The notes: a model not told the origin generated them from the letters alone. A stretch of 64,000 nucleotides of DNA from Candidatus Aenigmatarchaeota archaeon (GCA_018920345.1 JAHLMN010000005.1:12255-76254); one strand, 5' to 3'. Counted from the stretch's first letter, positions 7,530 through 58,098 are shown. Program-made: numbers and translations.

Positions 7530-7566
7530 ACAACATTTTTAAAAAATTAAAGTATTATTATTTTTT

Positions 7567-17949: not shown

Positions 17950-18170
17950 ATTTGTTTTGTCGAAATAAAATGCTTTTCTATTCGACACTTTTCTATTCGA
18001 CTTTTTGAAAAAACTTAGAATCGACAAAATAGACAATGCATTTTAAAAAGGCTTTTTTCTCCTTGTTTTTTTGCCTATCAAACATAGTTTTTGTTTCGAT
18101 TAAAAAGAAAATGTGTCGATTCGACTTTTCTTTTCTATATATTAGAAGGAGTTATATCAATCGACAATAT
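17950..18170. promoter_or_regulatory. Divergent intergenic region with at least 8 TCGAC-containing motifs, including a 15-bp tandem direct repeat CTTTTCTATTCGAC(A/T)
   Basis: gtcgaa (17960), cttttctattcgaca (17973-17987), cttttctattcgact (17988-18002), aatcgacaaaatagacaat (18019-18037), tttcgatt (18094), tgtcgattcgac (18113-18124), aatcgacaatattgtt (18159-18174). The pentamer is GC-rich in an AT-rich genome, so the enrichment is strong. Confidence 0.5.
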
Positions 18171-18211
18171 TGTTATACAATATTGGCCAATCTAAGAAGG
18201 AGGATATCCTC

Positions 18212-19069
18212 GTGAAAGAAGAAATATTGCAACTTTTGTCTAAACATCCAGAAGGTTTGACAATAACTTCTATAGCCGAAAAACTAGGGATACATAGACA
18301 TACTGCCACAAAATATGTTAAAGATCTTATCTTATCTGGGGAGATAAATGAGAGAAATGTCGGTATGGCAAAACTTTGTTTTTTGAATAAATACAAGTCT
18401 AGGCATATAATAGGTGAAAAAGCTGAAACAGGGCAGGCACAAATATTTGCTTTAGCAATTCTCTTATTCTTTATACCTGTTTTAATAATAGCTCAGAATT
18501 TTGGCACAAATATTACAGGTAGTTTTAGTGAAGTAATCGACACAACATTTATCACTTCTTCTAGCGATATCATAACAACAACGACAATTTCTGAATTTGT
18601 CGAAAATTCGACAGAATTAGTAGTCCAACAAGAGCCTTTATTAGTTGAAAATTACTCTGAGAATTCGACAGATTTTAATGAAGATATAGCTACTTCAGAG
18701 CATCAAAATATATCATCTTTTATCAATGAAACTAATGAAACAACCTCTAATAATTCATTAACAGAAATACAAGATGAAATTTTACAGCCAACTGAAACAA
18801 TAGAAAAAATAGAACTCGATTTAAACATTCCTAAAAAGATAAATAGAGGTGAAGAATTTCAAGCAACAGCTTCAGTATTAAACAAGTTTTCTTCGCAAAA
18901 AAATGTAAAAATAAAATGGATGCTTCCTCCTGGTTTTTCCATAATAAGAGGTAGTGAAGAAACTTTTTGTGAGCTAGAATCAGAGCAAGGATGCATTTCT
19001 GAAATAATGATAAAAGCTGAAACAGAGTTGGGGTTGCACGAGATAAAGGTGAAAGCAACTTATGAGTAA
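18212..19069 (+). CDS. Membrane-anchored winged-helix regulator (cytoplasmic wHTH, single TM, extracellular glycosylated domain); probable GTG start
   Basis: GTG at 18212 is preceded by AGGAGG 7 nt upstream and gives VKEEILQLLSKHPEGL..., parallel to the paralogue start. The tracked TTG/ATG start is 18170. TM is FALAILLFFIPVLIIA, followed by NxT-rich and CARDB-like sequence. The stop overlaps the giant gene ATG by 8 nt. Confidence 0.7.
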   Translation: MKEEILQLLSKHPEGLTITSIAEKLGIHRHTATKYVKDLILSGEINERNVGMAKLCFLNKYKSRHIIGEKAETGQAQIFALAILLFFIPVLIIAQNFGTNITGSFSEVIDTTFITSSSDIITTTTISEFVENSTELVVQQEPLLVENYSENSTDFNEDIATSEHQNISSFINETNETTSNNSLTEIQDEILQPTETIEKIELDLNIPKKINRGEEFQATASVLNKFSSQKNVKIKWMLPPGFSIIRGSEETFCELESEQGCISEIMIKAETELGLHEIKVKATYE

Positions 19070-22000: not shown

Positions 22001-25000
22001 TATAACCTCAGATCAAGTAGTTGTTCAACATGCAAAAACTTTTACTGTGTATACAGATGAAGGTGGAACATCAAACGATATTGTTTTGTTTACAAGTACA
22101 CCAAGAAAATTAGGTGCAAATTGTGAGGATACAGGAGGTCAAACAACAGGTTGTGGTACAGGTCACGCATCTGTTTGTGCAGACGGAGATGGTCAACCTT
22201 GTTATAAAAATTTCAGAGAAATTTATGTATGCAATTATGGTGATTATAATCTTACAGTAAATATAACAGATTTTACCGCCGGCTCAAATGTATATTTTAC
22301 AACAGAGACAGATGGGCCTATGGCTGTTCCCCAACCTGATTATAATTCAACAGGTGAAGTTAGATGGTATAATGTTAAAATAAATACATCTTCTTGCTTC
22401 ATGGCAGAAATTCCATATAGACCGACAGACGATACTGGTGAAGAAACTTTTATTTTACAAGCCGAATGGATAGATCCTGTTACAGGAGAGTCACAAATGG
22501 TAACAAATAAACATATTTCATTAATATCTGCAACTACTGGAACACAATCTCCAACTATAACTACAATTCTTAACAGAACAACAGTGTATCCAAATGAGCA
22601 ATTACCTTTAAGAGTTATTGCAAAACTTGGAGGAAGTGAAGGTTTTGCAGCAATCGATGGTGCAGCAACACACACTGTTGTTCATTATGTTGAATTATAT
22701 ATACCTCCAGGATTTGAAAGGCCAACAAACTTTAGAGTTGTGGATAATAATGGTGCAACTATTAGAGCAACATCACCAGATCCAGGATATCCAATAGGTT
22801 CTCCGGAAGAAGGTTGGGTCGTTAAATTTTCTCCATATTCAATTGGCGGTACAGTGATAAGATTTGCAGCTGCAGCAACACAGTCTGTTGGAAATATAAA
22901 CCATTATGTGGATTTCGTAACAACTGTTTTACCTGAAAATAATATAACTCCAGGTGGAAAAGTTTTTTATACAACCTATGTAGGTTGGATGAGACAAAAC
23001 AAAGATTACCTTTTCAAAACTGATAGAAACGTGTTAAGTGTTTTATCACCATTTATAAAAACTGTTAGATATTACAATACAACAATCAATAATGAAGAAA
23101 AAGGATTTCCTTCTTCAAATATGTGTCAGCCATTTTCTGTAAAGCTTCAAGTTTTTAACAAAGGAAATTTGCCAGCAACAAATTTCAATGTAACAGAAAA
23201 CAAATATAATCATAGTGTTACACACTGGAATGATTTGCAATTTTCAAATTTCAACCCCTCTGCAAATGTTTACAGCAGTAACGGCATAATTTGGGGAAAC
23301 AATAACATCAATTTTATACCAACTGGAAAGGATAATTCATTGAATTATACTTATATAATAACAGTACCTTATCAAACAAATGGAACATTTGTTTTCAAAG
23401 CTTTGACAAGAAATATGACATATATCTTCTATGACAAAAATTATACATCATTAATTTCATGTGGAGCATCATTAATTGTAAGTGAACCAATAATTAAAAA
23501 AGGTGAAATAACAAACCCACCAATTTATGCTGGTGACATTTTCAATATTTCTTCGACAATTTATAATGATGGCCCCGGAAATGCAAGCAATGTTATAGCT
23601 ATAATCAATTATACAGCTAATTTTGATGTTAGAAACTTTACTAATCACAATAGCAATATCACATATTTAGGAAATATTCAAAGCAAAGAATCAAAAGTTG
23701 CTCACATAGATTATACTTATACTGTTAATACTACAGGTGTATTACCAGGTACATATACATTTTGCATAATAGCGAATGCAACAGAAAATGCAACAAAGGT
23801 TGCTGCTTGTAAAGATGTAACAATACAAGCTCCACCAGCAACAATAGAATTAGAAAATCCACTAATTATAAGTAAAGAAACAGGCAGCTCAAGCGGTTCA
23901 TGGGGTTACAATTTTACTTTCAATATAAGCGTAAGAGTAAGCAATTCAGACACAGATGTTTCTATTTGCTCTTATTTCAGCAAAACAGGAAACGAGCCAT
24001 GGATACAAGTTGGCGAATGCCAAAACTATCCAGCTCCAGGCCAATCTATAGGTCAATGGCAAAACTTTACATATGAATTTGATCCTAGTTGCAATGACAT
24101 AGGTCAAATAGTTTTTGTAAAATTCAACGCAACCAATAATGCAGGCACAAGCAATTCAACGCAAACAACATTTTCAATAACAAAAGATAAAATTGCATTT
24201 GAAAACTTAATTGGTAATAATACAGAAACAAGAAGAGGTAAAACAGCAACTCTGCTTGCGATTAGAACTAGAGATGCAAACGGCACACTTGTGACAAACT
24301 TACCATTAACATTTTTCGTCACATTAGATGGCACCATTTATGATTCTGGTTATTCAACAACAACAAATGCTTCTGCTTATGCCAATTATTATTTCCAAGC
24401 ATCATGCTCGCCAAAATACCAAGTTGGTTTGCAAAAAGTGAAAATTGTTTTAGCTAATAACGAATGCTATCAAGACAACAACACAGAAAGTTATTATAAT
24501 ATTTATACTAATGTTACAGGTGATATAATTTTATCTTTTGTAAGGCCTGACGGCTCTGTGAACTATACACAAGAGCAAGAAATTCCATTTTTAGGAGCAG
24601 TCACAGATGATTGTAACGATCCTATAACAGCTACAATAAAATATTTCATCAATCAATCTTCATCCAGCATAGAATGTGAAGACATTAGTCAAGTTGGTTC
24701 CAATGCATTTACTTGTGATTTACCAACAACAATAAACACACCAATGGGTTGGTATAACACGAGCATGTATGCCAATAAATTGCAACATTACAATAATTAT
24801 ACAAATAATTTAGGTAACCCAGGATTGTTCTATTTATTCCCAATCAAAAAATTATTACAACCGTCTGCTTATCCAACAACAGAAGGTTGGGGTTATCCAA
24901 ATTGGAATTTCTCAATAAATGTGAGCAGCGGAGATTCTGAAAATGTTTTGTTAGCTAGTCTTTATATGGCTCAATATTGGCCTCCAACCTATCCTTGCCC

Positions 25001-28000
25001 ATCTAATATTTGCTTGAACCAAACACCTTTAGAATGTGCAAATTGTATAGGTTCTGTAAAATATTGGTATCGCAACTTTACAGCTTATGAACAAGGAATA
25101 TGGTATTATCAATTCAAGCTAGATGGTACACAAACAGATCAAGTCATTTCAGTAACAGTTGAAAAAGATGATACAAATATAACTTATGGTGGTGAAGGAA
25201 ATTTAACAACAGTTATAAAAGATGTTCAACCTCAATATTTGTCAGCAAGAGTTTATGATTTGGATAGACAAACTTATAATGTTACTTCACCATCAGCTAC
25301 AGTTACCTTTAAGCTTTATAACAGCAATTATCCAGATGGTTATATAATTTTAGGTTCGGCCTTAACAAATGAAACAGGTTATGCAAGATTTTTGTTTAAC
25401 ATCACCAATTGCTATGGTTTTTATGAAGGAACTCAATTATGGACAGCTGAAATAAATTCCTCTGAGCCATATTACAAACCAAGCCAAATGGGTAACGGTA
25501 CTATAACTATTCAGTTGCCTGGATGCCAACCACAAATAGATGTAGAGCAAATATTGACGCCAAAAGAAGTATTTTCTGGAAGAAACTTTACAGTAAATGC
25601 AACTATAACATCTTGGGTCGCTTCAGCTGAAAATGTTTACGCAACTATTTATTTGCCTGCAGGTTGGCAAGTTGACCAAGCTATAAAGAGTTTAGGCACA
25701 GTTAATGTAGGCGAGCACGTAAGAATATCTTGGAATGTAAATGCAACAACTGATGGTGTTGAAAACATCACAGTTTATGTAAATTCGACAAATGCTAACA
25801 ACGACGTCATTTATTCAAACAAGATCATTTCATATAAGCCAATCACATCATCAATAATTGAAACATTACCAAAAATTATTCAGCCAAGCCAGAGTCAAAT
25901 ATTCAGCTTTTTATGCGAAGCAGGTGATTATAGAATAGCAAATATAACTACTAACTGGAATGGTACAAATACAAAGGCAAAACTATATTCCTATAACGGC
26001 ACGACCTGGATAGATATAGGAGAAAGATATTTGAATGAAACAAAAATAGAATTTATTCCTATCTTGCAACATCAAATAAATTCAAATGAAACAGGATATT
26101 GTTTGATAAAAATCCAAAACATAGGAGACAATTATATCAATATTAGCAATATACAATTTTCAGCATACTACAATGAAACAATAAAAATACAAGACATTAA
26201 TACAACTGTTTTTGGCAATCAAATAACTGGAATAGAGCCAAATCAAAAATTAAATGTAACTGTTAAAGTTGCAAATTCAGGGCAAGGTCAAACAGGTATT
26301 TTGTGGCTAAACATCACAGGGCCAACTGGTTTGGTAAATTATTCTTCACAGAACATTAACATACCAAATGGCATAAGCTTTTTCAATATTAATGACATAG
26401 ATACTTCAACTTGGCAAGAAGGAACATATTCTATTAAAGCATTTGTAGATTATGGCAATAAAACAGAAAGAATTGAGCTATTAGAGTTGAGACAAATACA
26501 AGCAAGGATACATGCATATAATTGGATGTGCAATTCTTCAACCGAAGATCTATCTGTAGATATTTATCATCCATTTAATGATGATATACAATACAACATT
26601 TCCTTGCAAGTCCCATCTGGTTGGCAATATTCACCTGTTTATCAACTAATAAATGCATCTACTAAAGGCAATTACACAGCCAACTTCACCATAACTTCAG
26701 GCAATACTGCTGAAGTAGCATTAATAAATGCTTCTATTGTCTACAACTATCCTCAAGAAAAATCTTTGCAAGTAACTAAACAAATTATAAGCAATTCAAT
26801 TGCAATTTTAGAAGTTATAAGAGAAATGCCGAAATATGTTGGTAATGACAAAGTTTTTGATGCTCAATTAGTAATACACAATAAAGGTTGTGCACCAACA
26901 ACAGGAACAACAACTGTTTCAGAGCAAATATCAGCAGGATGGATACCAGCAAACCCATTCATAAAGAAAAATGAGTATGGTGACAATATAGAGCTAATAT
27001 CAACACAAGTTGATTTAATTAAAAATAAGGTAACATGGAATTTAGGCCAAATAGGCGTGAATGAATATGCTGTTTTGACATATCAAATAAAAGCACCAGT
27101 CGATACTGCAAGAGAAGGTCAATTCACTTGGAATGTTTCTTGGGATGGAAAGAGTTTGAGAGAAAGAGACCCATATAATGTGCAGACAGCTAATTATTCA
27201 AATGAAGCTCATTTAGAGTTTGATTTAGAGGCCTTGCAACAAGAAGCCTATCCGTGGGTCGAGCCAAGATCTGCTCAGCTAAATAGAAATTATGAATATG
27301 CATTAAAAGTCACAAATGTTGGAGATAAAAATGCAACCGATTGGACAATAACACTATATGTTCCCGAAGCTTGTGATGTCAAGGCAATAAAGAACAGTGG
27401 CAGTTGGAACTCAACCTCAAGAAAAATCTCTTGGTCTTTACCTGAAATAGAGACTTATGAAAGCACTTATTTGAACTTTACATTGAATTGTACAATTGAA
27501 GGAAAGAAAATATTAATAGCAGAGGCATTAAAAGACGAAAGACAACAAATAGCTTTCACAAACGACACAAGCATCTCTTGTTATGGTCAAGAATGTTTAA
27601 TTGAGCAGCCATTCACATTTACAAAACCAGTTAATGCGAGATATGAAACCCTATCTGCTTTAAACATGCTGGTAAATTATGATTGGAGCGGGTTTAGAAA
27701 CACAATAGGAGAAGGAAAGATAACTTTCACAGACGATTTAGGAAACTATTACACTTTATGGCAAAATTACAGTCATGATAGCACATCATCATCTTTATGG
27801 CAAAATTACACAATTCTGGAAAATGAAAAGTATGTTTCTCCAACAAGAAAAATAAAAATAGAAGGTTATGCAGATGCAACTGATGATGCTTTAACAAATG
27901 TTACTATTAACAAAATAAATTATGTCTGGAATGTTGGAAAATACTTCCAAGAGCCACAAGAATTGTTTATAAAGACAAAGATATACACATATAAACCTTT

Positions 28001-31000
28001 ATTAGAAAATGCAACTCTCTACATTAATGGTAATAGCAGCAGAATTATAGGTGGATGGGGAGAAACATTTAATTTTTCTGTAATGTTGAGAGATCGTTTT
28101 GGTAGAGACGTCACTGTCTATGCATGGCACAAAAAAGGTGCTGGGGAATATAGTTTAATAGGAAGCTGGACTTGTTATTCATGCTTGGAATGGAATCAAG
28201 CGAACTTTAGTTATGACTATATAGGCAGTGATATAAGCAGCTGGGAGTTCAAATTTAATGCAACTAATGCTGACGGCACTTCAACATTAAACGGTTATCC
28301 ATATACAGTTGAAGCAGATGACATAAATGTTGATTTTGCTTATCCAACCTATAACATGACTGTTAATAGAAGTGGAACAAGCAATTTTGTAATTTTGGTT
28401 TATGATAGAGACAATCAAACCTCTCCAGCTTATTTAATGCCTGGAGAAACAGATGAAGGTAAAGGAAGAATTTATATTTCAAAATTCGGTAGTAATACAA
28501 CATTTGATCTATCCCCTTCGCTTTCAGCAAACTCTACCGGTCATGTAGTAAGACAAATGAGCAATATAATACCGCAATGGTGTTTGGTAAGCGATTATTA
28601 TTTAGGACAAAATTATTGGAAGGGCGGGATAGAAGGTGCAGTGACTTACAAGAATAATGCAACAGGTATTTATCCATTTATGTTAGTAGGTGATCTATCA
28701 AATTCTTACTTAACACAACCAAACAACAAAAACTTTACAAGAGGCTCAACAATCAATTTAGACGGAGTCATAAAAGACGATTGCAATGATGTAAAAACAG
28801 ATTCTGCAAGATTTGGTGCAGAATATATATTGACGCATGAATCAACTGAATACAGAATTACAGCTTCTTTAACTTCAGCTTCCTTTGAAATTCCGTTAGA
28901 CGCACCGCTAGGCTGGTATAATATTACAATGATATCATTCTCAGAAGGTATTGATAATGACAAATATTGGAATGGCACATATTTCAAGCAAAATGCATTT
29001 TTCTTAGCATCCATACCTCAACTAAACAATGTTCAAGTTCAGCCATATCCAAAAGGAAGTTGGGAAACAAAACCATTCAACTTTTCTGTTTACATAACAA
29101 ACATAGATAATGAAACAGTTTTTGCTAGACTCTGGTTCAAAAACCAAACAGATGATTGGTTCTTGCAAAACACAACTACTTGCAGTAATTGCGACAATTA
29201 TTATTTCTTGACACAACACAACTTCACTTGCTATAATATTGGTGAATGGAAAGCACAATTTAATGCAACTTCAGCTACTTCATTTAGCAATTTGACAACA
29301 ACAATAACATTTAACATTACAAAGTCTGATATCTCTATATTACATTCTTCAGGAAATAACACAATTGTTAATAGAAGTGATGACGAACCAGCTAATACAA
29401 GAGAACTATCTGTTCAAATATTCAATCTAGTTACAAACAAAAATGAGACAGCAATATCAACATCAGACGTCTACACATGGGTATATGATGGCTCTACATA
29501 TATAGAACAGCTTGAGACAGCAAATACTTCACATTACTATTTCAATTTCAATCCATCTTGCAGTTATCAAGTAGGTAAACAAAAATGGAAAGTTAATACA
29601 ACTTCTAGCTGCTATTCAACAAACACATCAGAAGAATTTTACATAGATATTTATGGAAGTTTGAATAACACTTTGATTTTACCTGATGGATCTACAAATT
29701 ACACGCAAAATGATCAAATATTGCTTTTAGGCCAAATAACAGATGATTGCTCGCAACCAGTGTTAAATGCTAATGTAAGATTCAAACTTCAGTCTGGCTC
29801 AAACATCTATTACTGCCCATCTTCAGGTTATATAACAAATACAACAGGCAATTATTATTCATGTGTTTGGGATTCTTCCGGTAAACCAGGTGGTTTTTAC
29901 AATATTACAATGGAGTCAAACAAAGCATATCACAATAATGGAACAGACTATTTGCAAAACGCTTTCTTCCTCATAACACCTGTTCAGCTTATCTCACCGC
30001 AAGTTAGCTATCCTGGCGATGGTAGTTGGGGAGAGTTGCATAACTTTACTGTTTTTGTCACCCACTATGCTCCTGCAAATGTATGCTTGCTAGAAAGAAC
30101 ACCAACAACTCAATGGCAAGTAACAGAATGTAAATATGTTGAAAATCCACAAAATACATTTGTAAACTTTACAAGATACTATACTTGCGATGAATATCAA
30201 GCTTCAGCTTTGAGATATTTTGTATTTAATGCAAGTGAGCCAGGTGTTGCTGCAACATATTCAAACACAACCGAACAATCTCACGTCCTTGTTAAAAATG
30301 ACATAACAATAACTTATGTTTATGGCAACGAGTCTTTTGTCAATAGAAATGGCGCAAACACAACCAAATTTATATTGTTCGTGAATGATACAGACAGAAA
30401 CCAACCAGCATATTATTTATTAGGTGCTTCGGTAAAGCCACAAGTTTGGTTTAGAGTACACAATGCAACTAGCTATTTAGTTGATGGATATAATTCGACA
30501 AACACATCTGGATATGTCGAATATAATTTCAACCCATCTTGTAGTTATGAAGCAGGTAAATTTAAATGGCAAGGCTATACTTCTTCTGATTCTTGCTACA
30601 AAGATTATTCTGCAGAAGAGTATAATGTTACAATAATAGGTGATCTAGTTGCAAATGTCACATATCCAGATGGAATAACATACTTTAGAAATTTAGAGCT
30701 ATACATACCAATCAACGGCACAGTTATTGATGAGTGTAACTTACATTACAATGAAAATGCTACAGTAAACTTTACAGCAATTAGTGTTGGTTTTGGCACA
30801 GAATATCAATGCCTACCTGTTGATAATGCTGGTACAGGAAAGTATAATTGCACGCTAAATGCAACAACAATAGAAGAAGGTTGGTATAACGTAAGAATGA
30901 ATGCAACCAATGTGCAATATTATAATAACGCAACTATTTTAGCATCAAATAAATTTAGAGTCATTCAACAATGGGTTCCACCTATTTTAGAAAACGCAAC

Positions 31001-34000
31001 TGTTTTACCAGAGCAAGACTGGGGCTGGGGTGAAAATTTCACTTTCATAGTTAATGTAAGCGATCTAAATGCACAAGACATAAATGTCTCTTTATGGCTT
31101 TCCCCAGATAATCAAACCTGGCAATACATATCTTCACAAATATGCTACAATTGTGGAAGCAAGAAACAATTAACATTCTATTATAAAGGTTTTAATTGTG
31201 ATGCAATACCAAAATATTATTTCAAATTTAATGCAAGCGATCAATACAATAAAACAGAAATAGCTGGAATAGAGTTTCCAATAACCAAAAATGATGTTGA
31301 AGTTAGATATGTTGATTTTGCTGTAGGCAACAATTCAGTTGTCAATAGAAACGAATACACAATGTTAAGGTTAAGACTATATGACACAGATAATAAAAGC
31401 TATTTGCCAGCAAATGTAAATGGAAGAATTTTTGTAACAACAAATTATGTTGATTTTGATTTAGGTAATGCAAACATAACAGATGAACAAGGCTATTTAA
31501 GTTATTATTTCCAACCAAACTGTAATTATTTAGCTGGTGTGCAAAAATGGAAAGGAGGCACATATGAAGATGCATGCTATAAAGATAGCAATATAACAGA
31601 TTATTTGCAAACAACAATAATAGGTTGGTTAAATAATACAATTATAGAGCCAAATGGAGATGTTTATTATTCAAATCAAAACGTAACAATAGTAACAAAT
31701 GTTTCTGACGAATGCTTCCTGCCAATAACAGATGCATCTGTTGTCTTTATGCTTAATCATTCATCAAACTATTATCAATGTCTTGATGTTTCATCAAATA
31801 ATGGTTGGTATAATTGTACTTGGAACATTTCTAACAACCCATCTGGTTGGTATAGCATAAGAATGAATTCAACAAGGCAATATTATAACAATGCAACAAC
31901 TTATAGTGAGCAATCATTCTTCCATCAAGTCGATCCACAATTAAAAGCAGCTTTTGTAACACCAAATTCAACATGGTGGGGCTCAACATTTGCTTTCAAA
32001 GTAAATGTAACAGATGATGATGATTATGTAAATGTCAGTTTATGGATAAGATGTGTAGGCGGCAATATAACTCCAAACGGCTGCTCACCTGATTCAGAAT
32101 TTTCTTTAGCAAACACCACAAATGTTTACGATTATATTAATAATCAAGTCATGCTAACAAAGAAGTTTGCTGATGGTGTCAATATAGGTAATTATGAATG
32201 GTTCATAAATGCATCAGATAATTATGGCGGATTTGCAAACACAGGCATTTATACATTTAATGTCACAAAAAGACCTGTTTATCTAGTTTATGTATCTGGA
32301 AATGAAACTAATGTAAGCAGGATAGGCGCAAACACAACATTAGTTAGAGTTAGATTATTCAGAGTTGGTGCTGACGGCGGCAACGACGAGCCTTTGAATG
32401 GTTTATCAGTCAACTTCTGGTTTACTCAAGATGGATCTACTTGGTCAAACACGCCTAGATCAAACACAACAGGTCAAAGTGGCCCAGGTTATGCTGAATT
32501 TGCTTTCAATCCATCTTGTCCAGCTACTGACGGAGGTATAGATTTCTTCAAGACAGGTAGACAATGGTGGAATGCAACATTCTCAAGCAACACAGAGCCA
32601 GGAATTTATTATTATGCAAACACATCAACTAATTTCACTTTATATATTAATTCAACTTTAAATGTTAAAATAATAAAACCAGACGGTGAATACTATCCAG
32701 TTGGCACCAATATTTACACCTTAGCAAATGTTTCTGATGAATGTGAATATGTTTCTCAAGCTTCTGTTCAATTATCAGTTTCTGGCGAAAGTATAAGTTG
32801 CAGCAATAACACAGGTGATGCGAATGGTCAATATAGCTGCATTTTGCTAACATCAGTTCTTGGTACAGGTGATTATAATGAGGAAGCAACAGCTACTAAG
32901 AATTATTATGATTCTGCTTACACATTTAAACCAAATGCATTCAAGATTAGATATTCTCCACAGTTAAGCAATCAACAAGTAACGCCAACAACAGAAGGTT
33001 GGGGTTATAACTTTACATTCAATGTTTCAGCTCAAGATTCTGATCCAGGAGATTATCTAAACATAAGTCTATGGAAAAGTTACGGAGGTGAATGGATAAA
33101 AGTTGAGCAAAAGAATTGTGATTCATGTTTGAGCCAGCAAACTCTATTCTTCCATCCAATTTTCAGTTGTGAAGATTACATAAATGGTCCAGTAGTAAGA
33201 TTCAAGTTTAATGCAACAGACTCTTATGGTTTAAAAGCAGAAACACCAAACATTACATTAACATTTGAAAAAGACGATGTTTTATTTACAATTTTACAAG
33301 GTAGTGGAGCAACAATAAATAGAAGTGATGAGAATGATAATAATGCATACAATTTTGTTGTGATTGTTAATGATACAGATAGAAGAAATGTAACTGTTAA
33401 TAGCAGTGAAGAGCCAGACCAAACAATAACAGGTTATTTTGTCTTTAGTAAAGAGCCAATATCACCAACATTTGATTCTGGACATAGCAATACAACTGTT
33501 AATGGCTATCTTAGCTACTATTTCAATCCAGACTGCAATTATAAAACAGGTTTGCAATACTGGAAAGTTAATATAAGCGGAAATACTTGCTATAAAGATA
33601 CAGAATTAACAGAATACCAAACTTTCAACATAATAGGTCAATTAAAGACAAATCTATACTTACCACAAAAATACTCTGAATTTAATGTTACTGACAATAT
33701 AACATTCAAGTTCAACACATATTCAGATTGTTATTTGCAAGGAGCAGAAGATAATGGCAACATAAGTGTTGACACAAGTTCTTTAAGATTAAATGAAACA
33801 TTTTATTGTACACCCATACAACAAGAGTTAGCAGGTAACTATAATTGTACTTGGGACAGCACAGGCAAGCCGCAAGGCAATTATACAGTAAACATAACAG
33901 TTGAAAAATTGAATTACAATTTCAACACAAGCTATTATATTGATTGGTTTTATTTGAAAAATAGAATGCCAAATGTCACAGAAATGAATGTTACTCCATA

Positions 34001-37000: not shown

Positions 37001-40000
37001 TGCTAATCCAACTAATACAAGTACACCTACTGTTACACCAACAATAGGTGGATGGGGAACAGTTTACAATTATTCTGTCCAACTTTTAGATACAGACGGC
37101 GATCCAATTACTTGTGTACTATACACATCAACTGATGATGGTAATACTTGGGTGAAACAAGGACAACAATTAATAGGTAGTGTAGGTACATGCAGTTTCC
37201 TTGTCAAAAACTTTAATTGTAATGCAACTTATACAGATGTTGGTAGTGATAACTGGTTCAAATTTGAAATCACAGATGGTTATCACACACCATTTAATAT
37301 CTCAAGTGAACCTGGACCAATAATAGAGAAAAACAATATAACAATAACTTTATTTGCAGGCAATAATTCAGTTGTTAATAGAACAGGAAATGATTTCACA
37401 ATATTAAGAGTTTTTGTAAACGATACAACAAAAGGTTGGCCTGTTGGCAATGCAACTTCAGGCAATGCAACTATCAAGTTCAACATAACTTATAATGGTA
37501 TAAGCTATTTGTTAGAAGGATCAAACACAACTTATAGAGGCAACGTCACATATCGCTTTAACCCATCTTGCTCTTATTATGTAGGTGATCAAAAATGGAT
37601 AGCATATAAACAAGGTGAGATAGGTGGAGATCAATGTTACAATGATGCTTCCTCAGAAGTCTTCAACTTAACAATCACAGGTAATTTAATTAATGTTATA
37701 CAAAAACCAAGTGGAGAAAAATACAACAGAGGCGAAGTAAATGTAACAATAAGAGGTAATGTAACAACAGATTGTCCATCTTTAGATGGATTAATTTCTA
37801 CTGCTCTAGTTAACTATACAATAATTCATGTAGGCACACAAAACACTTATAGCTGTACAGAAGGTACATTCACAAATGAGGGTAATGGTTATTATAATTG
37901 CAGTTTTGATACAACATCAAAACCAACACAATGGTACAATATTAGGATGAATTCTTCTGGATTTCAATATTATACACCCAATACCACAACAAAAACTAAT
38001 GCTTTCTTTATATCTACAATTCCAAATTTAACAAATCCAACAACAACACCTTTATCTGGTGGATGGGGTGCACCACATACATTTAGTGTTTACATAAAAG
38101 ATGATGACAATGATGTCAATAATGTCAGTTTATGGATAAGATGTGTTGGCGGCGGCTGCAATCCAACAAACTTTTGGTTAGCAAAGACAACTTTGATAAC
38201 AGCATCATCGTCTCCTCAACAAGTACAATTCACAAAAACAGACTTTACACCAGCTGATATTGGCAATTGGGAATATTTCTTTAATGCAAGCGATGGTTTA
38301 AATTCAGCTAACACAAGTATAAACACATTTACAATAACAAAGGATACAATTAATTTAACTCTAGTAGCAGGAAACGAGGCTGTAATAAATAGAAGTACGA
38401 CAGAAACAGCAACATTAAGAGTAAAAGTTTTTGATGTTGATAGAAATGTCGCCTTATCACCAGGTGAGCCAGGTACAGGCTATTTCTATGTAACAACAGA
38501 TCCAAATAATCCTAATAGCTATGTAATTGATAAAACTCTAACATCAATAGAAGGAGGAAGTTATTTAACAGATATATTTCCAACATTAGCTAGATGCACA
38601 TATGGTGTTGGTCCACAAAAATGGAAAGTAGAATTTGGCTCAGACGCTTATCAAGCAACAAATAGCTCAGAATTTTTAATCAATATTACAACACATGAAA
38701 TTATTTTGCAAATAATTGGCCCTAATAATCAAACATTTAGAAGAGCAAGAGACCCAATACCTCTGGTGGCTCAAGCCAATGATGATTGTGGCGGTTTAAT
38801 AGGAGCAACAACATTCTTTAAAGCTTATCCAGAATATTCATGGACAACTTGCAATTCGCCTACTGATAATTTGAATGGAACTTATAACTGCACATTGTAT
38901 TCTCCAGAAACTGCAGGTTTAACTTATTATAATTTAGAATTTAATGCAACAAAACAATATTACAATTCAAGTAGCAATGCCTACAAACAAGATGCCTTTG
39001 TACTTGTAACAAATCCAGAAATAATAGCTTATACACCTGTAACTTCTGATACAGTTTATCCAAATGGTTGGTCTGAAGTTTGGAATTTCACAGCAAGCGT
39101 AAGAGACATTGATCAAAATGTCTATAATTTTGAAAAATTGAACATAAGTTTATGGATTGATTTTGGCTCAGGTTATCAACTTGTTAACAGCACTATATGC
39201 TCAGCAACAGATAATCCAAATTGTGCAAGCTGGAAGACAATAACATTCTTGTTTAGAAACTTTACTTGTGGTGATATAGGAATAAAATCATATAAATGGA
39301 ATGTTACTGATGTTTGGAATTATACCAATGAGACAACAGCAACATTAACTGTAGATAAAAGTGATGTAATAATAGAGTTTGTAGATCAACCTTCATATAT
39401 TTATAGAGCTGATACTAGCACTGGTAAATTTGTTTATAGGGTTTATGATACTGATAAAGGTCAATATGTTACAAATACGTCCACAAACACAATGATGTGG
39501 ATAACAACTGATGGTAGCACTTATGACAATGGAAGATTTGTGCAAATAAATTCATCTGGTTATGCTGTTTATGAATTTGATCCAGATTGTAATTACAGAT
39601 ATGGAATGCAAAAATGGATAGCAGGCGTTTATGAGGATGCTTGCTATAAAAACAAGAATTTATCATTCACTCCTCAATTTGAAGTAAGAGTCCAATTACA
39701 AAATAATTTGCTTGTACCTGTATACAATAGCATTTATAATGTAACTGATATGATATTAGTAAGATTTAATACAACCACAGAATGTTCTGCTGAAGGTTTA
39801 ATTGGAAATGCAACAACAACGATTTCTTTACAATCGCCATTAGGTGTTTGGGAGACATGCACACCAATTAATAATGAATACAATGGTTGGTATAACTGCA
39901 CATGGAATTCCACTCATAAAAAGGAAGGCTATTGGTCAATAATGCTTAACAGCACAAAAACACCATATTTTGCTCAGAATTCAACTGTCTATTCTAACTG

Positions 40001-43000
40001 GTTCTGGTTAGAAAATTTAAACTCAAGCTATGACAACATAACATTAACACCAACAATAGGTGGATGGAGTAGGCTATACAACTATACAATAGATATTGAT
40101 GATCCAGAAAGAGAGGACATAAATTGCAGCTTATTTATAAGCAAGGACAACCAATTGACATGGGAATATAAAGGTAGTTATTTATTGCAAAACGGTTTAG
40201 GTACTTGTTTTGTAACAGTTCATGACTTTACATGCGAAGATATTGGAAAAGAAATATTTTACAAATGGCAAGTTGTTAATGGAGAACCTGCTAACGCATA
40301 TAATACATCTGCATATAAAGGCCCAAACATAACAGAATCATTAGTGCAAGTACAGCTTTCTCAAGGCAATAACACATTTATCAACAGAACATTCCAAACA
40401 AAACCTTTAATTGTCAGAATTTTTGATATAGAAAACCAAAGCTATGTATACAATGCTAACACAAGCTTTTGGATAACATATGATTATTCAAATTATTTAC
40501 TTGTAAACAAAACACAAACAGATTATAATGGTTATGCTCTTTACAGCTTTACACCTAGCTGCATATATCAAGTAGGCACACAAAATTGGAAGGCAGGAAT
40601 TGAAGACGACAAATGCTATTCTGATGTTAACTCAACTGATTATCTAGTTCATGTAAACGGTACATTGTTTAATACAATATTACAACCATCAGGACAAGAA
40701 TTTTTAAGAGGAGATAATATAACAATAAAAGCAAACGTCTCAAGTGATTGCCAAAACGAAGTAATGAATGAATCTGTTTACTTGGAATTAACAACTGTTA
40801 AAGATTTACAAAGTTTGCAATGCACACCTGTATTGAATGAAAACACTGGTGTCTACAATTGCACATTTAATACATCAAGCTATGCAGCGAGATGGTGGAA
40901 TATAACAGCTTACAGCAACAAAATAGGCTATAATAGCAACTATACAACAAAAATAAATGCATTTTGGGTTGAAACAAAACCAGAGTTGAACAACCCAACT
41001 GTTATGCCTTTAGGAGATGGAGGTTGGGGTGAAACATGGATATTTACAGTTAATTTTACAGATGAAGATTTAGATCCAAATACAGTAAGATTATGGGTAA
41101 ATAAATCAAGTGGTTGGTCAAATGCAAATACAACTATTGTTTCAGGTATAAATCAAACAATAACATTTGTTCAAGTTAATCTATTTACATCAAGTGATTA
41201 TATAAACTCATTAAACAATTTAACAAAATTCTATTTCAGAACACAAGATGAAATAATACCAACAGAAAACGATACAGCTGAAACACCACAAATTAACATA
41301 ACATTGCAAAAAGATGATGTTTACATAAATCATACCTATGGCAACAATACAGTTGTTAACAGAAGTGGAGGAAGTTTGTTCTTTAGAGTAAGAATGTGGG
41401 ATACAGATAGAGTTCCTTGGGATGATTTACCTTCTGGCAGCAAAGGAAGATTTTGGTTTACAAAAGATGGTAATACATTTGTAAACACAATAGATAAATT
41501 TGCTAATAGCTCTGGAGAAATAGCACATTTGCAAGCTTTAGATTGCTCATTCCAAGTTGGTCCACAAAAATGGTTTGCTGAATTATATGGCAACACGCCA
41601 TATAAAGATACTAACTCAAGCATCTTTAATTGGACAATTGTTACTGTTGGCTTAACAGCTAACATAACTGATCCTGATGGCATACCGAGATTGAGAGGAA
41701 TAGATGATATTGTTTTGCGTGCAAGAGTAACAGATGATTGTGGTGGTGTGCCTAATGCTACTGTTATATTCCATGTTCCAGATGAAAATTATGATTGTAC
41801 AAACGTGTATTATGAAGGTAACGGATATTACAATTGTACAATACCTGCAGCTACAACAGCAAGCTGGAATACAGGTTGGCACGATGTTACTGTTGATGTT
41901 TCAAAACAATACTATAATGGTACATTTGTAGAAAAGACAAATGCATTTTATTTAGCAACAAAACCTGAAATATTGCTTACACCACCTCCTGCTGCTATAC
42001 CAGAGCAAGATGGTGGTTGGGGTGAGGATTGGTTATTTACAGCTATAACACAAGATACTGATGGTGATAGCTATAATGTATCTTTATGGTTCAATTTAAC
42101 AGGTAATTGGCAATTAGTAGATTCAGTAATAGTTAGTGGTCCACAACAAGTTGATTTTCCAGGTAAAACATTCTCTTGTGATGATATTGGTGAAAGGCAA
42201 TTTATGTTTAAAGTAACAGATGTTTGGGGTTATGAAAATAATTATACATCGCCTTTCACAATTTACAAAGATGATACAATAATCGATTATGTTGCTGGTG
42301 CTGGTACACAGGTTAATAGAGAATATGATGACATAGAGCCAATTATAGTGCAAATATCTGACTTTGATAGAGATGGTATTTATGTAGGAAGTAATGTTAA
42401 TGGATCATTCTTTATAACAACAGATGGATCAAACTATATACAAGCAGCAGCTAACAAAACAGATACCTCTAGTCTATTAAGCTATTACTTTAATCCTAAC
42501 TGTACATTCAATGTAGGCATACAAAAATGGAAAGCAGGTACATATAATGATAGATGTTATAAAGATAATATACCGGATTATGGATTTACAATAGAAATCA
42601 CAGGGCAACTGAAAAACAATTTGATAAAACCAAACTATGGTGAAATAATAGCAGTAGGTAATTTGGTTAATACAACATTCCAAGTTTTAGATGAATGTGG
42701 TTTTGCTGTAAATGATTCTAATGGTAAAATAGAATTTGGCTCGCCTACAAATTCATTTGAGCAGTGTTTACCAATAACAGATCAAGGCAATAGCATCTAC
42801 AATTGTACTTGGAATACAAGCTTCCATATGGGTGGTTATTGGGATATAAGACTAAACAGCAGTAAACAGTACTATTATTCCAATTCAACTTTACTAAATG
42901 ATTGGATTTATTTATTGAATACGCCACCTGCTTATGAAAACCTGTCTGTTACACCTACATCAGAAGGTTGGGGAAGAAACTTCAGCTTTAGTGTTGATGT

Positions 43001-46000
43001 CGATGATTTGCAGTATGATAATGTTACATGCACATTATTTGTTTCAACAGATAATGGGTTAACATGGAAAAACAAAGGCAATTATACTGTTTATGGCGGT
43101 CGTGGCAAATGCATAGTCAATGTTTCTGATTTTGATTGTGGTGATATAGGAAATGACAATAGATATTTGTTCCAATTATATGACGGTACAAATTTAATAA
43201 ACACAACAAACAATACAAATCTAATAATAGAGCCAAACGATGTTGAAATAATATACATTTCTGGCAATAATACATTTGTCAACAGAAGTGGCAATCAATA
43301 TACAACATTTGTTGTACAAGTTCATGATCTAGATGCTAATACTTATCCAAAAGATGTAAACATGTCAGTATTTGTTACAGTCGACAAAACAAACTATTTA
43401 ATAAACTCAACACCTAGATCTGACATCAATGGTATGCTTTACTATAACTTTAATCCATCTTGTACTTTTAATGAATTAGGTATGCAATATTGGCTCATAG
43501 GTGCAGATAACAATGTTTGCTATAAGAGTGTTAACACAACTCAAAATTATACAGTCAATATAATAGGAGACATTTTAAACAGACTAACAACACCAAGTGG
43601 TCAAGACTTTTTAAGAGGAGAAGATAATATTACTTTCACTATAGAAACATCAGATGATTGTGCTGCACCTGTGGATAATGCAAATATTAATTTGACATTA
43701 ATAAGCGAATATGGAAATACATACAGTTGCGAACCAATAGATGAGTTTGGCGGAGGAATTTATTATTGCACTAAAAATACAAGTGGCATGAGAGCAAGAT
43801 GGTATAATGTAAGTGTAAACACGAGCAAAGAATTCTTTAACACAAATGTTTCTTTACATGTAAGACCATTTTTCATTAAAACCATGCCAATAGTGCAGAA
43901 TTTAACTATAACACCAGCACAAGATTGGGGTTGGGGTGAAAAATATATATTTACAGCAAATGTCACTGATGAAGATTTAGACACAGTTTACGTCAATCTA
44001 TATTATACACCAGTCGGTTTTGATGATTGGGTTCAAATAAATTCAACAACAATAACTTCACCATTCAATACAACTGTTACATTAACATATCAAGGATTTA
44101 CATGCTCTGATATAGATTACGAGCAAGAATTTGAATTTACTGTTTTAGACAATAGATCTTACTTGGTTAATAGTACAGTACGGGAGCCATGGAAGAAGAA
44201 ATTCAATTTAACAAAAGATGATGTTCAAATAATTTATGAAGCAGGAAATGGCGAAGAGGTATGGAGAAACGGTACTGACTCAAGAAGATTAAGCATAAGA
44301 GTATATGATACTGATAAAGGCAGTTATCCTGGCTCAGGCTACAACGGCATGTTCTGGGTAACGACAAATTATGCTCAATTTGATATAGGCAAAGCGACAA
44401 CAACAAACTCTTCAAGCTTTTTGAATTATTATTTCACTTCCGAAGCACCTCAGCCTGAGTGCGATTATTTAACAGGTGTGCAAAAATGGAAAGCTGGCAT
44501 ATATGATGATGCATGCTATAAAGATACTAACTCAACCAATTATACAATTACAATTAAATCAGAGTTAAGGCCACAAATAGATTATCCATATGGACAAGGT
44601 TTCATAAGACCAAATCCAGTTCCATTCATTGCAAGAATATATGATGATTGTGGTTTGGTTTCAGGGGCGACAACAACTTGGACAGCATATAATGGACCAA
44701 ACGAATATGGTTGCACCAATAAAACAGAAGCTAATGGCTGGTATAATTGTACATGGCCATCTGCTAACAGACCTTATGGATATTACAATCTTCAATTTGC
44801 TGCTACCAAAAACTATTATGCACCTAATAACACTTATAGAGCAAACGCATACTTCTTAGGCACTCTACCACAACTTTCTGATCCAAAGATACTCAACAAT
44901 CATTATTTAGGTGGATGGGGAGAAACTTATGAATTTTCTGTTAAGCTAACAGATTTTGACTTGAACACAAACAATGTAAGTGTTTGGAAGAGTTTTGACG
45001 CTCAAAATTGGACTCTAGTTGCTTCGCAAAATGTTTCTAATGCTGTTAATCAGCAAATAATCTTCCCAGTAAAATTCAACTGCAGTGACATGGGCTTTAA
45101 CTATTTCTACTTTACTTCTGTTGACCAGTTTGGCTATTCAACAAACACAACAATATTGAATTTCACTTTAGAAGCTGATAATGTCACTTTATCTATTGGT
45201 CTAATAAATACAACTGTTAGAAGAATAGGAGAACAACAAGCTTTGTTGAACTTTACAATTTATGATGATGATTATGGAAGATATGCACCAAATGCTTTAG
45301 GCAACATAAACATTACTTTAGATTATTCTAACTATTCTTATGTCTTCAATTGTACTACTAATGAAAGAGGTCAATGTTATATATATTATAATCCAAACTG
45401 CTCTTCTTTAGCTGGTGTACAAAGTTGGATAGGTAAAACAGTTGATAGCTGTTATCAAATAAAAGAAACTTCACCAACTAGCTTGGCTGTCATAGGCCAA
45501 TTAAACACATCTATTTTGAATCCTTACAATGGACAAATATTGAACAGAAATCAAAATGCTTCACTAAACACAATAATATTAGATGAATGCTTTAATGAAG
45601 TAAGTGGGGCAACAGCTTTATGGTATAATGAAACTTGGAGCAACATAGCTTCTGGTTACAATACTAATTGGATAATACCAACTTATTATGAGCTTGGTCC
45701 AGAAACAATTTATCTAAATGTAAGCAAAACATATTATGATCCAAACAGCAACAAAACAAATGTCTACATATATGGTTGGAGCGGCATTAGCATCTTAAAC
45801 CCACTTGATTCATCATTCTATTTAGCTGGAACATCAGTAAATGTTAAATGCAAAGTTATAGATCTAAACACAACAATGCCTTTACAATCATATATGGTCA
45901 AATTCTATAAGAATGGAACTTTAATGGACACACAACCAACTAATTCAGATGGCGAGGCATTTTGGTTATGGCAAACCATGACAGAAAATTATGGATGGTA

Positions 46001-49000
46001 TAACATTACATGCTCAATAGATGATAATACAGTTATGTATTACAATGCAAGTATTCCAAGAGCAACTTCTCTTGTTGAAATAAAGAGGCCTTTGATAATT
46101 CAATCAATAGATAAAAGTTCTCCATTTGTTTATAGAAATGATAGTTTTGTTCCAAATAATGTTAACATAACAGTAAGAATTAAAGATGCATTAATTGGAG
46201 ATGCAGAAAATGCAAATGTTACTTTCTATAATTCTACTGGTTTAATAGATTGGTGTTTGACAAATTCAACAGGTCAATGCTTTATAACATTTAATCCAGC
46301 TGATACAATAACACCAAACATTTATACAATTTATGTTAATGCAACTAAAGTAGGCTTACAAGACTCTGTTACAAATACAACAACAATAGAAGTGAAAGGA
46401 AAGCTTTTTGTCAACATATCTTCACCTTTAAACAATAGTTTCTGGGCAAGAACAGACAATATAGCTTTAATAGCTTCTGTTTATGATGAAGCTGGTCAGG
46501 AAACAACAGCAACAGTAAGATGGTTTAATGAAACAGCTCAAGTTGCCTCTGGCGAAAACAGCAATTGGTATTTAATAGAGCAAACAACAGGTAATCATAC
46601 ATTAACAGTAAATGCCACAAGAGATTATTATGATAAAGGTGAACAAACAATAATAATAACAATAAGCAGCTTGTCAGATGTTCAATGGATTTATCCAAAT
46701 GATGGCAGCATAATGCCATACCCAGATGCATTCAACACTTTATGTAGAGTAATAGATAGCAGCACAGGCACTCCAATACCAAATTACATGGTGCAATTCT
46801 GGTATAACTATACACCTGGTTATATTTTCAATGGTACATTGTATACAAATGCTTCTGGTATAGCAACAAATACATGGCAACCTCCACAAAAAGGTCAAGT
46901 TATGTTTAGATGCAATATAACAAATGATTATGAAAAATTATATACAGCAAACATAAAAGAGGCATTTGCACTAATTACAATAAGAGATATAAGACCACCA
47001 CAAATAAACAATATTTCTATTCAACCTTATGCAGGTTTAGAAGCCAATTTAAATTACACAAACATCTCAGCTGTTATAACAGATGATATAGCTGTATATG
47101 AAGCCTGGGCACAAATAACAATGCCTAACAGTACTATATTGAACTTAACAATGCCTAATAGTGGTAATACTTATAGTGTTTTGTATCTACCTCCAATAGG
47201 AGGAAATTATAGTGTAAGAATATATGCAAGAGATTATCCACCAGAAAGCAACTCCAACAACACATTTGCAGGAACATTTTATGTAAATGGCAAAACTAAT
47301 GGTATTATAACTCAACCTGATAATATACAAATAAATGGCATAACATGGACAAGCTCTGAATCAGCAGAATTAACAATCAATTTCACTAATATAGGCCCAG
47401 CAACTGCTTATGCTGTCAATATTTCATTCATTTCTGATCCATTAAATTCACTTATATTAAATGAAACCATTCATGAATGTGGCACAGTCTATAATCAAAG
47501 CTCTTGTATATTTGGTTTACTAGTCACAGTGCCAGCTGCTACACCACCTTCAGCTATCAAACTTATATCAAATGCAACTTGGCGCAATCCTGACTTGACA
47601 AAAAGTTTCACAACAGAAGATACTAATTTTGTTGTTATTTCAAACAAGATAATTGATATATTACAAGACAACATAACAGCTATTGCTCCTCATGACAAGC
47701 TTACTGATTTACCTGATATAACTGTTCAATCTTTAGGAAATGACATGATAACTGATATAAGCATAACAACAACAGGCGGCAACATATCAACATTATGTCC
47801 AGACTGCGAACTAATAATTGTTCCAAATGAATGGGGTCTACTTGAAGCAGGAGCAAGCTTTGTTTCTGATTTACGTATAAATGTGCCAAGAGCACAACCA
47901 CCAGGAACATACTGGACTTATATCAAGGCAGCATCAGTTGAAACATCGCCAGACTTGATGCCTTTGTATATTACAGTGCCGCTAAATACATCATGGTCAC
48001 GCTCTCCTGAAAACTTTGGCTTAATATTAGCTCCACCAAACACATCTGGTTATATAGGTGAAATAACAACAACAAGCTTTGCAAATATAAGATTAATATT
48101 AAATGCTTACAAACTACAGAACGGCTCACAACTTTTCAACATTTATCCATCTGCTTTCAGTCTTGACAATGGCGCTGTGAGAAACATCACTGTCACATAC
48201 AATATACCCTCATCTTTCATTTCTTCTCAAGGATTATATTATGCTCAAATAATTATAACAAATGAAACAGCAATGCCAAATGAATACAGAACAGAATTCT
48301 GGTTAAATGTTACAGATATACCTCCAATAATATCAAATGTATCTTTTGTGCCAACTGAGTTTGAAATGATTTATGAATCAACAAATATATCAGCAATTAT
48401 TAGAGATAATTTTGCAGTAAGCTCAGCTTTCCTAAATATAACTTTACCTAATAGCACTAGCTTTACTCAACCTATGAATAATACAGGCTCTTATTATTCA
48501 ACTATTTACACAAGCAACATACATGGCTATCATAATATAAGTATTTGTGCAATTGATACCCAAGGCTTACAGGGTTGTACAGAACCAACACCAATATTAG
48601 TTTCAGGTGAAACAACAATAAGAAATGTCTTTAACATAAGCAAAGCAGTCGTGCCTAACATCACTTTGTCAAATGGAAATGAATTTGCAATAACATTTAC
48701 AACAAATAACACAGGTTTATCAAGAGCATTTAATATTTCAGTAAATATAACAACACCTTCAAACATATCATCAAACATAAATTCAACTTTCTATTCATTG
48801 CTTTTAAAGAATCAATCATCTAGTCAAGTAGTTGAATTTAATGTTTCAGCTGCGACAAGACCAGGCATTTACAAAATTAATTTCACAAACAATTGGACAA
48901 ATTTAGATCAAACCATTTCCTCTTCCCTCGATCAGCTAGAAGTAGAAGTATTATCAAATCCAAGATTGAATACAACTGAAAACATTACAGTTTATGTACC

Positions 49001-58055: not shown

Positions 58056-58098
58056 CTTTTTCTTTTATATTTTCAGTTTAATTATTAAATTTTTGAAA

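Follow-up and report, generated by a model that had tools for sequence, protein, structure and literature searches.

A giant putative surface protein built around a repeated three-domain module in an Aenigmatarchaeota genome

DPANN archaea depend on physical contact with a host, and the molecules that make this contact are largely unknown outside the Nanohaloarchaeota. The candidates described there are the SPEARE proteins, which combine a signal peptide, about 75 immunoglobulin (Ig)-like domains, a transmembrane helix, a cytoplasmic ATPase, and a terminal coiled coil; examples are NAR1_1133 of Nha. antarcticus, SVXNc_0300 of Ca. Nanohalococcus (9,409 amino acids [aa]), and BNXNv_0298 (PMC6642349, PMC10266531). 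Their ATPase was read first as ResIII-like and later as VirB4/TraG-like (PMC6642349, PMC10266531), and relatives of the cytoplasmic part were reported from Aenigmarchaeota, Woesearchaeota, and Micrarchaeota (Hamm et al., PMC6642349). Laminin-G, serine-protease-like, and toxin-like regions were also assigned to the ectodomain (Hamm et al., PMC6642349), an assignment disputed by Reva et al. (PMC10266531). Here we describe a giant gene in a 64,000-nucleotide (nt) stretch of a metagenome-assembled genome (MAG) of a Candidatus Aenigmatarchaeota archaeon (GCA_018920345.1, JAHLMN010000005.1:12255-76254; the whole stretch is called the window), a member of a phylum in the kingdom Nanobdellati (DPANN). 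The single open reading frame (ORF) encodes 11,259 aa, much of it an array of modules about 1 kb long at the DNA level (Table 1).

Set against the published descriptions, the giant protein resembles SPEARE in being a very long single polypeptide with a signal-peptide-like N-terminus, in the tandem ~100-aa Ig-like domains of its bulk, which is probably extracellular, and in having one C-terminal transmembrane helix, a cytoplasmic P-loop ATPase, and a terminal coiled coil. Our preferred interpretation, to which we assign a probability of roughly 0.6, is a giant membrane-anchored surface protein of SPEARE-like architecture, with a glycosylated, disulfide-stapled stalk for contact with a host or another cell. 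Unlike SPEARE, the chain carries an A-B-C module repeated 20 times with a three-module super-period, and its composition is non-acidic; two related loci (L009 and L010) are labelled Nanohaloarchaea, yet their proteins are not acidic. Pfam scans of aa 1-3000, 7313-7978, and 8895-11259 and of the 20 units found no laminin-G, WD40 propeller, protease-like, or toxin-like region. The SPEARE genes of SVXNc and BNXNv are directly followed by a gene for another ATPase, also VirB4/TraG-like, whereas the product encoded downstream of the giant gene is helical and has no ATPase match in Pfam at E <= 1. At 11,259 aa, the protein exceeds the 9,409-aa SPEARE protein described as the largest in cultivated archaea (PMC10266531) and counts as one of the longest recorded from archaea. 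What is new here is the lineage-specific A-B-C version; the giant DPANN surface protein as a type was already known.

A first reading of the window from its sequence alone (hereafter the sequence-only reading) had proposed 17 consecutive ~1-kb units at 28.6-45.4 kb, more diverged units at 24.4-28.6 kb, and four or five Ig-like-only repeats of ~280 nt after the array. The periodicity was borne out: a unit profile seeded from one unit, iterated twice, and searched against the giant protein recovered twenty full-length copies (2 + 18), which make up over half of its predicted extracellular part. Eighteen of these, each at E 1e-72 to 1e-119, are contiguous and follow one another at 317-361 aa (951-1083 nt) from start to start, with a unit length of ~328 aa. 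The contiguous array thus stands, but with 18 rather than 17 units and with limits at 28.05 and 45.77 kb; upstream of it, two diverged units lie at 23.9-25.8 kb, whereas 25.8-28.05 kb is not module sequence. Profiles for the sub-domains give the order (A-B-C)x2, spacer, (A-B-C)x18, followed by C, B, C, and one more weak piece. These last four pieces (C at aa 8903-8989, B at 9032-9084, C at 9111-9196, and a weak C-like piece at 9197-9307), each of ~100 aa (~300 nt), closely match the shorter repeats of the sequence-only reading. Its ordered motif list likewise reappeared, in the same order, in a consensus built from 434 units, of which 20 belong to the window and 414 to 149 database proteins: GGWGE..F, V.D.D.D, GNN..VNRSG, DTD, and FNP.C.Y.VG.Q.WK, continuing with CYK, DDC, Y.C.P, YNCTW, and GWYN..MN..K.YYN.

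An AlphaFold2 model of unit U6, built on an alignment of the 20 window units, is all-beta (predicted local distance difference test [pLDDT] 92, predicted template modelling score [pTM] 0.77) and consists of sandwiches A (about residues 1-103), B (104-204), and C (205-318). No parallel beta-helix or solenoid fold appears in this model, and the beta-helix that the sequence-only reading had suggested as one part of the module gives way to three consecutive beta-sandwiches. Profile-profile comparison (hhalign) found only a marginal match between A and B (probability 70%) and none between A and C or B and C. Model and profile comparison together show each module as three mutually different predicted beta-sandwich (Ig/macroglobulin-like) domains in the order A-B-C. 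No Pfam family reaches threshold on the units; A and B go unrecognized, and C has sub-threshold Big_7 matches in 4/20 units. Another giant protein in NCBI (P0266, 6,856 aa, on a 210-kb contig) contains about 35-42 tandem C-type domains only and shows that domain C also occurs as a stand-alone repeat family.

When the U6 model was compared with the PDB by Foldseek, the best E-values came from the macroglobulin-domain arrays of C5, C3, A2M, and A2ML1; the Ig-like extender repeats of giant bacterial adhesins (5irb, 4p99, 6xi3) and titin also matched. The macroglobulin matches, together with a Pfam MG2 match at aa 490-575 (E = 4e-13), could indicate a protease trap of the alpha-2-macroglobulin/complement type, and strings of macroglobulin-type beta-sandwiches are indeed shared with alpha-2-macroglobulin and complement C3/C5. 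However, TM-scores are low (0.23-0.45) and reflect similarity of a single beta-sandwich, the thioester motif C[GLA]EQ occurs nowhere in the giant protein, and the Pfam scans of the regions listed above found no thioester (TED, A2M_comp), CUB, or bait-region domain; a trap is very improbable. The extenders of bacterial RTX/Lap adhesins (MpIBP region II, LapA-type; 4p99, 5irb, 6xi3) are alike in a different respect, as a tandem Ig-like run that projects a distal binding region. Such extenders consist of one domain type, often in repeats nearly identical in DNA and rigidified by Ca2+, whereas the window protein combines three different domains in a unit whose copies share only 28% identity and would owe its stiffness to disulfides and glycans. 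It also differs from RTX/Lap adhesins in having no RTX or type-1 secretion signal and in its transmembrane anchor fused to an ATPase.

Codon-aligned units share on average 46% of their nucleotides (40-56%) and 28% of their amino acids (20-41%). The longest DNA repeat patches measure 25-106 nt at 60-85% identity and are spaced at multiples of ~1 kb, and Tandem Repeats Finder detected no array in the DNA. Giant repetitive genes are often misassembled, and most database relatives of this one are fragments, which could point to a periodicity produced by collapsed or duplicated repeats or by a chimeric ORF. Against this, duplication during assembly is excluded because the units share only 46% DNA identity and lack long repeats, as the sequence-only reading had argued from low identity between units. 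Furthermore, the 33.8-kb frame stays open in DNA of about 33% G+C (about 30% for the window), unit order is collinear in other lineages, and a near-identical strain carries its own version. In this sister MAG (GCA_038997225.1; L014, JAWADT010000002.1) the gene was independently assembled, since it appears as an 11,190-aa call with the same 8-nt upstream overlap. An artefact is thus hardly credible. The sister protein is 69 aa shorter than that of the window (11,259 aa).

The array grew by duplication of three-module blocks (about 1,000 aa, or about 3 kb), because identity between units peaks at lags 3 and 6 (32.5%, versus 27-28% for the remaining lags; p < 1e-4 by permutation). In the related locus L005 (1.1-Mb contig, 54% G+C), lag-3 identity reaches 75%, reflecting recent triple-unit duplications. 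Average-linkage clustering of the units at k = 3-6 did not separate them into types.

Related loci in GTDB, gathered through the last 410 aa of the giant protein (94-98% identical to their counterparts in MAGs that bear the title Candidatus Aenigmatarchaeota archaeon), allowed units to be compared by position. U17-U20 have positional orthologues in 8/8 GTDB loci that share the C-terminal domain, with identities of 68-78% in the close relatives L007 and L011 and of 39-45% in the distant L009, L010, and L013, while the best paralogue inside the giant protein reaches only 33-37%, below the positional orthologues. The same array end is found in L007-L013 and in the database protein P0128, and in eight GTDB genomes it is followed by the ATPase. 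At the other end, a protein of 'Ca. Haiyanarchaeum thermophilum' (P0275) is collinear with U1-U8 (63, 61, 44, 54, 58, 54, 35, and 41% identity) and then skips to U15-U17, so that it differs by two three-unit blocks; its layout of two units, a ~740-aa gap, and an array is that of the window, and a gap of spacer size occurs in P0127/P0275. Collinearity with U6-U12 is seen in P0126, a further Aenigmatarchaeota protein, and in a Micrarchaeia genome U17-U20 come after five or six triplets in tandem. Ratios of nonsynonymous to synonymous substitution rates (dN/dS) against L007 and L011 are 0.11-0.13 for the array and 0.02-0.03 for the ATPase, rough values given that dS is saturated (about 1.4-1.7). 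Positional orthology and low dN/dS argue that the units are old, non-interchangeable, and under purifying selection, with copy number shifting by duplication or loss of blocks. This agrees with the sequence-only reading of an old, selectively maintained, modular array.

By hydropathy, the giant protein has hydrophobic segments only at aa ~10-75 and ~10855-10885. Between them lie 512 N-x-S/T sequons, or 4.75 per 100 aa versus 1.76 expected from composition; beyond aa 10500 there are only 0.6 per 100 aa, and the cytoplasmic tail has none. For comparison, 18 of the 21 other ORFs in the window have 0-1.3 sequons per 100 aa (three of these 1.1-1.3). Outside these 18 are the ORFs at 18170-19069 (2.7) and 14830-15723 (4.0), as well as that at 61333-63081 (0.2), which was set apart for its 46 cysteines. 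In the 434-unit alignment, 12 profile columns carry a sequon in >=35% of units, including the NRS, NCT, and N.T motifs picked out in the sequence-only reading. We infer that the chain is exported and heavily N-glycosylated.

Cysteines in the module appear to be paired. Four pairs co-vary across units, with phi of 0.68 (C47/C50), 0.78 (C64/C200), 0.45 (C182/C247), and 0.91 (C266/C279); C182 and C247 are each 90% conserved and occur together in about 85% of units, and the cysteine number is even in 95% of the 434 units and in 20/20 window units. These pairs probably form disulfides, and two of them, C64/C200 between domains A and B and C182/C247 between B and C, would staple neighbouring domains together. 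C64/C200 is missing in U7, U10, U13, and U16, i.e., in every third unit, and similar periodic loss occurs in relatives, which suggests a regular, less constrained joint ('hinge') at these positions.

Such sequon density and such conserved cysteines would also suit an S-layer-like or glycocalyx glycoprotein that shields the cell in a hot environment and has no part in host contact. A passive coat, however, has no need of the cytoplasmic translocase-type ATPase to which the ectodomain is fused and with which it is conserved. Among named members, moreover, the module family occurs only in MAGs with DPANN labels, and the giant protein is far longer than typical S-layer proteins, by about ten times. 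We therefore consider an envelope coat unlikely.

The N-terminus is consistent with export. Homologous proteins have MKSSTKSGQSQLL at their start (at residue 8) and then about 17 hydrophobic residues ending VFA/TN (the slash marks the putative cleavage site), which looks like a Sec signal peptide. In the window protein the matching segment spans aa 47-78. Translation from the first ATG puts a hydrophobic extension of 46 aa in front of it, which may mean that the start was called too far upstream; the GTG at 19173 offers an alternative. We considered reading GQSQLL as part of a type IV prepilin-like (class III) signal peptide and did not adopt this: class III signal peptides obey a rule on a charged position -2, and here that position is uncharged and a V-x-A/T site of signal-peptidase-I type follows the helix.

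At the cytoplasmic end of the protein, Pfam matches to DUF87 (39 bits) and HerA_C (33 bits) both exceed the cut-off, accompanied by T4SS-DNA_transf and a weak ResIII match, and a PDB profile search found HerA proteins as the only solved relatives (4d2i, E = 1.6e-10). An AlphaFold model of the domain (pLDDT 90, pTM 0.89) gave hexameric HerA translocases as the best Foldseek matches (E = 3e-13), followed by TcpA and FtsK. By profile and model, then, the C-terminal domain is a predicted HerA/FtsK-superfamily P-loop ATPase most similar to HerA, for which a hexameric state would follow only by analogy. The known HerA translocases (Sulfolobus HerA 4d2i; HerA-NurA; the HerA of Sir2/DUF4297 defence systems) and the FtsK/TcpA motors share its fold and Walker motifs, but they are soluble or work with separate partners, and an extracellular chain of 10,000 residues is attached to none of them. 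No NurA or Sir2 partner gene adjoins the giant gene.

This kinship with DNA translocases leads to the main competing view of the array, as the wall or scaffold of a tube or bundle in which six chains stand on a hexameric HerA-like ring and DNA, effectors, or metabolites move between symbiont and host; a 'straw' conduit of this kind was proposed for the nanohaloarchaeal giant proteins (PMC10266531). The ranking of structural matches fits (HerA first, then the coupling protein TcpA, and FtsK), no other part of the protein is as conserved as the ATPase (94-98% identity, dN/dS 0.02-0.03), and position-specific conservation of the units would suit specific lateral contacts in a multi-chain assembly. 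However, tandem strings of beta-sandwiches typify adhesin stalks and not known channels, each chain has a single transmembrane helix, and Pfam scans of the protein pieces found no pore-forming or secretin-like domain, so that a conduit is an outside chance. A bolder version, in which one gene supplies an entire intercellular apparatus (a HerA-like ring with six 10,000-residue chains whose position-specific, disulfide-stapled modules would lie against one another in a tube or cable, jointed and several hundred nm in length, through or along which host DNA or other material would be pulled in), is more speculative still; if true, it would constitute a contact and translocation organelle made of one archaeal polypeptide, without a bacterial counterpart.

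Under the interpretation that we favour, a contact stalk, the array would form a fibre that is long, stiff, thermostable, and jointed, stiffened by glycans and disulfides. The stiff, stapled, and jointed character is proposed because of the glycosylation and the inter-domain cysteine pairs, with the A-B pair lost in every third unit. An Ig-like domain is roughly 4 nm long, and 60 domains of about 4 nm would give an extended length on the order of 200 nm. Such a stalk could hold the distal N-terminal domains off the cell and bring them into contact with a host or neighbouring cell, while one transmembrane helix would couple it to the cytoplasmic HerA-type ATPase. The solved relatives of the ATPase are hexameric rings, and a single motor may therefore gather several chains. 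Proteins with tandem domains generally show low identity between neighbours, which avoids misfolding between domains, and the low identity of adjacent units here would fit the same pattern.

Several points weigh against this interpretation. The N-terminal topology is uncertain: if the 46-aa extension were real, both ends of the chain would be anchored and the array would be a loop and not a free stalk. The disulfide pairs and any straight or rigid form of the module are proposed from sequence and not from the geometry of the model, and shared ancestry among units inflates cysteine co-occurrence. The dN/dS ratios carry the saturation noted above. The role in host contact is carried over by analogy from Nanohaloarchaeota, where it is a hypothesis too, and the gene that follows differs, being helical here and encoding a second VirB4-like ATPase after the nanohaloarchaeal SPEARE genes (PMC10266531).

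The module forms a fairly large family. With an exhaustive HMMER profile search, 977 representative proteins were returned at E <= 1e-3, of which 357 remain at E <= 1e-30. Fragments predominate, with lengths of up to 6,938 aa and 17 units. A word-indexed search with the unit profile gave only 4 proteins, which, compared with the HMMER result, reflects limited sensitivity and not rarity. Of the ten representatives whose names were looked up, none has an annotated function, each being called 'hypothetical protein' or bearing a domain or membrane label that is uninformative; named members come from MAGs labelled Micrarchaeia, Aenigmatarchaeota, Haiyanarchaeum (Parvarchaeales-related), and Anstonellales. 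On one 1.3-Mb Micrarchaeia contig (P0125 and P0279) and in L005, relatives occupy two or three ORFs of 3,200-6,900 aa; should frameshifts have divided what are really single genes, the proteins would exceed 12,000 aa and hold at least 26 units. In the literature that we searched (giant proteins in Aenigmatarchaeota, Haiyanarchaeum, and Micrarchaeota; CedB with DPANN), we found no description of the module, of the 3 x 3 hierarchy, of unit-level orthology, of the cysteine pairing, or of the helical partner gene. With this locus, the SPEARE-type architecture would extend to thermophilic Aenigmatarchaeota and their relatives, with a defined module family that Pfam does not cover. A module profile would let fragmented giant genes be spotted in metagenomes, unit-by-unit orthology permits array length to be compared across lineages, and the locus offers further handles in a confident module model, the cysteine pairs, the hinge in every third unit, the glycosylation columns, and the partner gene.

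Table 1. Features of the giant gene and its immediate neighbours, in window coordinates; the slash in the signal-peptide-like segment marks the putative cleavage site
Feature	Position (nt)	Strand	Basis or remark
Giant ORF, 11,259 aa, contains the array	19062..52841	+	ORF call; sister MAG version 11,190 aa
Signal-peptide-like segment SKKSETGQSQLLASLIVLLITSTLVIA/TNST, aa 47-75	19200..19286	+	Hydropathy, homologue N-termini
Unit U1 (A-B-C), early diverged copy, aa 1610-1919	23889..24818	+	Hidden Markov model (HMM) E = 7e-82; 63% identity to P0275 unit 1
Unit U2 (A-B-C), most diverged copy, aa 1937-2258	24870..25835	+	HMM E = 2e-58; 61% identity to P0275 unit 2
Spacer, ~740 aa, non-module, DUF11/CARDB-type beta-sandwich domains	25836..28046	+	No unit-HMM match
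Core array U3-U20, 18 contiguous A-B-C units = 54 beta-sandwich domains, aa 2996-8903	28047..45770	+	Profile
U3-U11 alignment starts	28047, 29037, 30009, 31002, 31956, 32979, 33990, 34980, 36063	+	
U12-U20 alignment starts	37032, 38046, 39060, 40047, 41001, 41997, 42948, 43908, 44910	+	
Tail of partial copies (C, B-C, weak C-like), aa 8904-9307	45771..46982	+	Sub-domain profiles
Membrane-proximal extracellular region (predicted): duplicated ~430-aa module, Cys-rich CGDGICD motif, Gly run	46983..51623	+	
C-terminal transmembrane helix, aa ~10855-10885	51624..51716	+	Hydropathy
Predicted cytoplasmic HerA/FtsK-superfamily P-loop ATPase, Walker A GTGSGKT	51759..52631	+	Pfam, PDB profiles, AlphaFold, Foldseek
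C-terminal helical, coiled-coil-like tail, aa 11190-11258	52632..52838	+	DSSP helices, model residues 301-369
Downstream putative partner, 467 aa, helical, highly charged, weak SHOCT-like C-terminus	52888..54291	+	
Upstream ORF, 299 aa: N-terminal, cytoplasmic-looking helix-turn-helix (HTH_11), transmembrane helix, sequon-rich tail, weak macroglobulin-like match	18170..19069	+	

Outside the array, the giant gene has a second, smaller duplication. A ~430-aa module distinct from A-B-C occurs at aa 9305-9735 (46974-48266) and 9748-10164 (48303-49553), and the two copies align with a Smith-Waterman z of 36 against shuffles; BLASTP self-comparison of the non-array regions gave no match. Further towards the membrane, at 50800-50950 (aa ~10580-10630), a Cys-rich segment CGDGICDHGYGESPFTCPRDC precedes a Pro/Ala/Gly run PVPVPPAAGGGGAGGGGGGGAAGG, which is possibly a flexible tether beside the membrane-proximal domains; the sole tandem DNA repeat in the giant gene, an 18-nt unit at 50904-50940, lies within this run. 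In the N-terminal part, Pfam DUF11 matches the spacer at aa 2735-2835, and an NPCBM_assoc match falls in the C domain of U2. No other ORF of >=150 aa lies within 19062-52841 in any other frame or on the opposite strand.

The genes on either side of the giant gene may act with it. The 467-aa gene directly 3' recurs at seven loci (L006, L007, and L009-L013) with 31-87% identity, and its product is, judging from this conservation, a putative partner of the giant protein. In two of these loci, a second large ORF (~1,970 aa, Asn-rich) follows the helical partner gene (L009 13283-19198 and L013 13292-19210), and the window has no equivalent at that position. On the 5' side, the stop of the upstream ORF overlaps the ATG of the giant gene by 8 nt, as it does in the sister MAG (285-aa call, 8-nt overlap), and its product carries KAETGQAQ before the transmembrane helix, similar to the ETGQSQ motif of the giant protein; it may be a membrane-tethered regulator or partner. 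Neither the downstream ORF nor the THUMP ORF had an exact-sequence match in the database, probably owing to different start calls.

Elsewhere in the window, the AlaRS and Tyr/TrpRS genes encode proteins that recur with identical sequence in several NCBI MAGs. A 297-aa ORF at 14830-15723 (+) with a signal-peptide-like N-terminus, 4.0 sequons per 100 aa, and no Pfam match probably encodes another glycosylated surface protein, and the 582-aa ORF at 61333-63081 (+), with its 46 cysteines and weak CarboxypepD_reg and MG2-like matches, may encode another secreted or surface protein. Housekeeping functions are represented by three aminoacyl-tRNA synthetases and two tRNAs, the latter an adjacent pair 3' of the giant locus, tRNA-Ser(GGA) at 57972-58056 and tRNA-Pro(GGG) at 58099-58174 (+).

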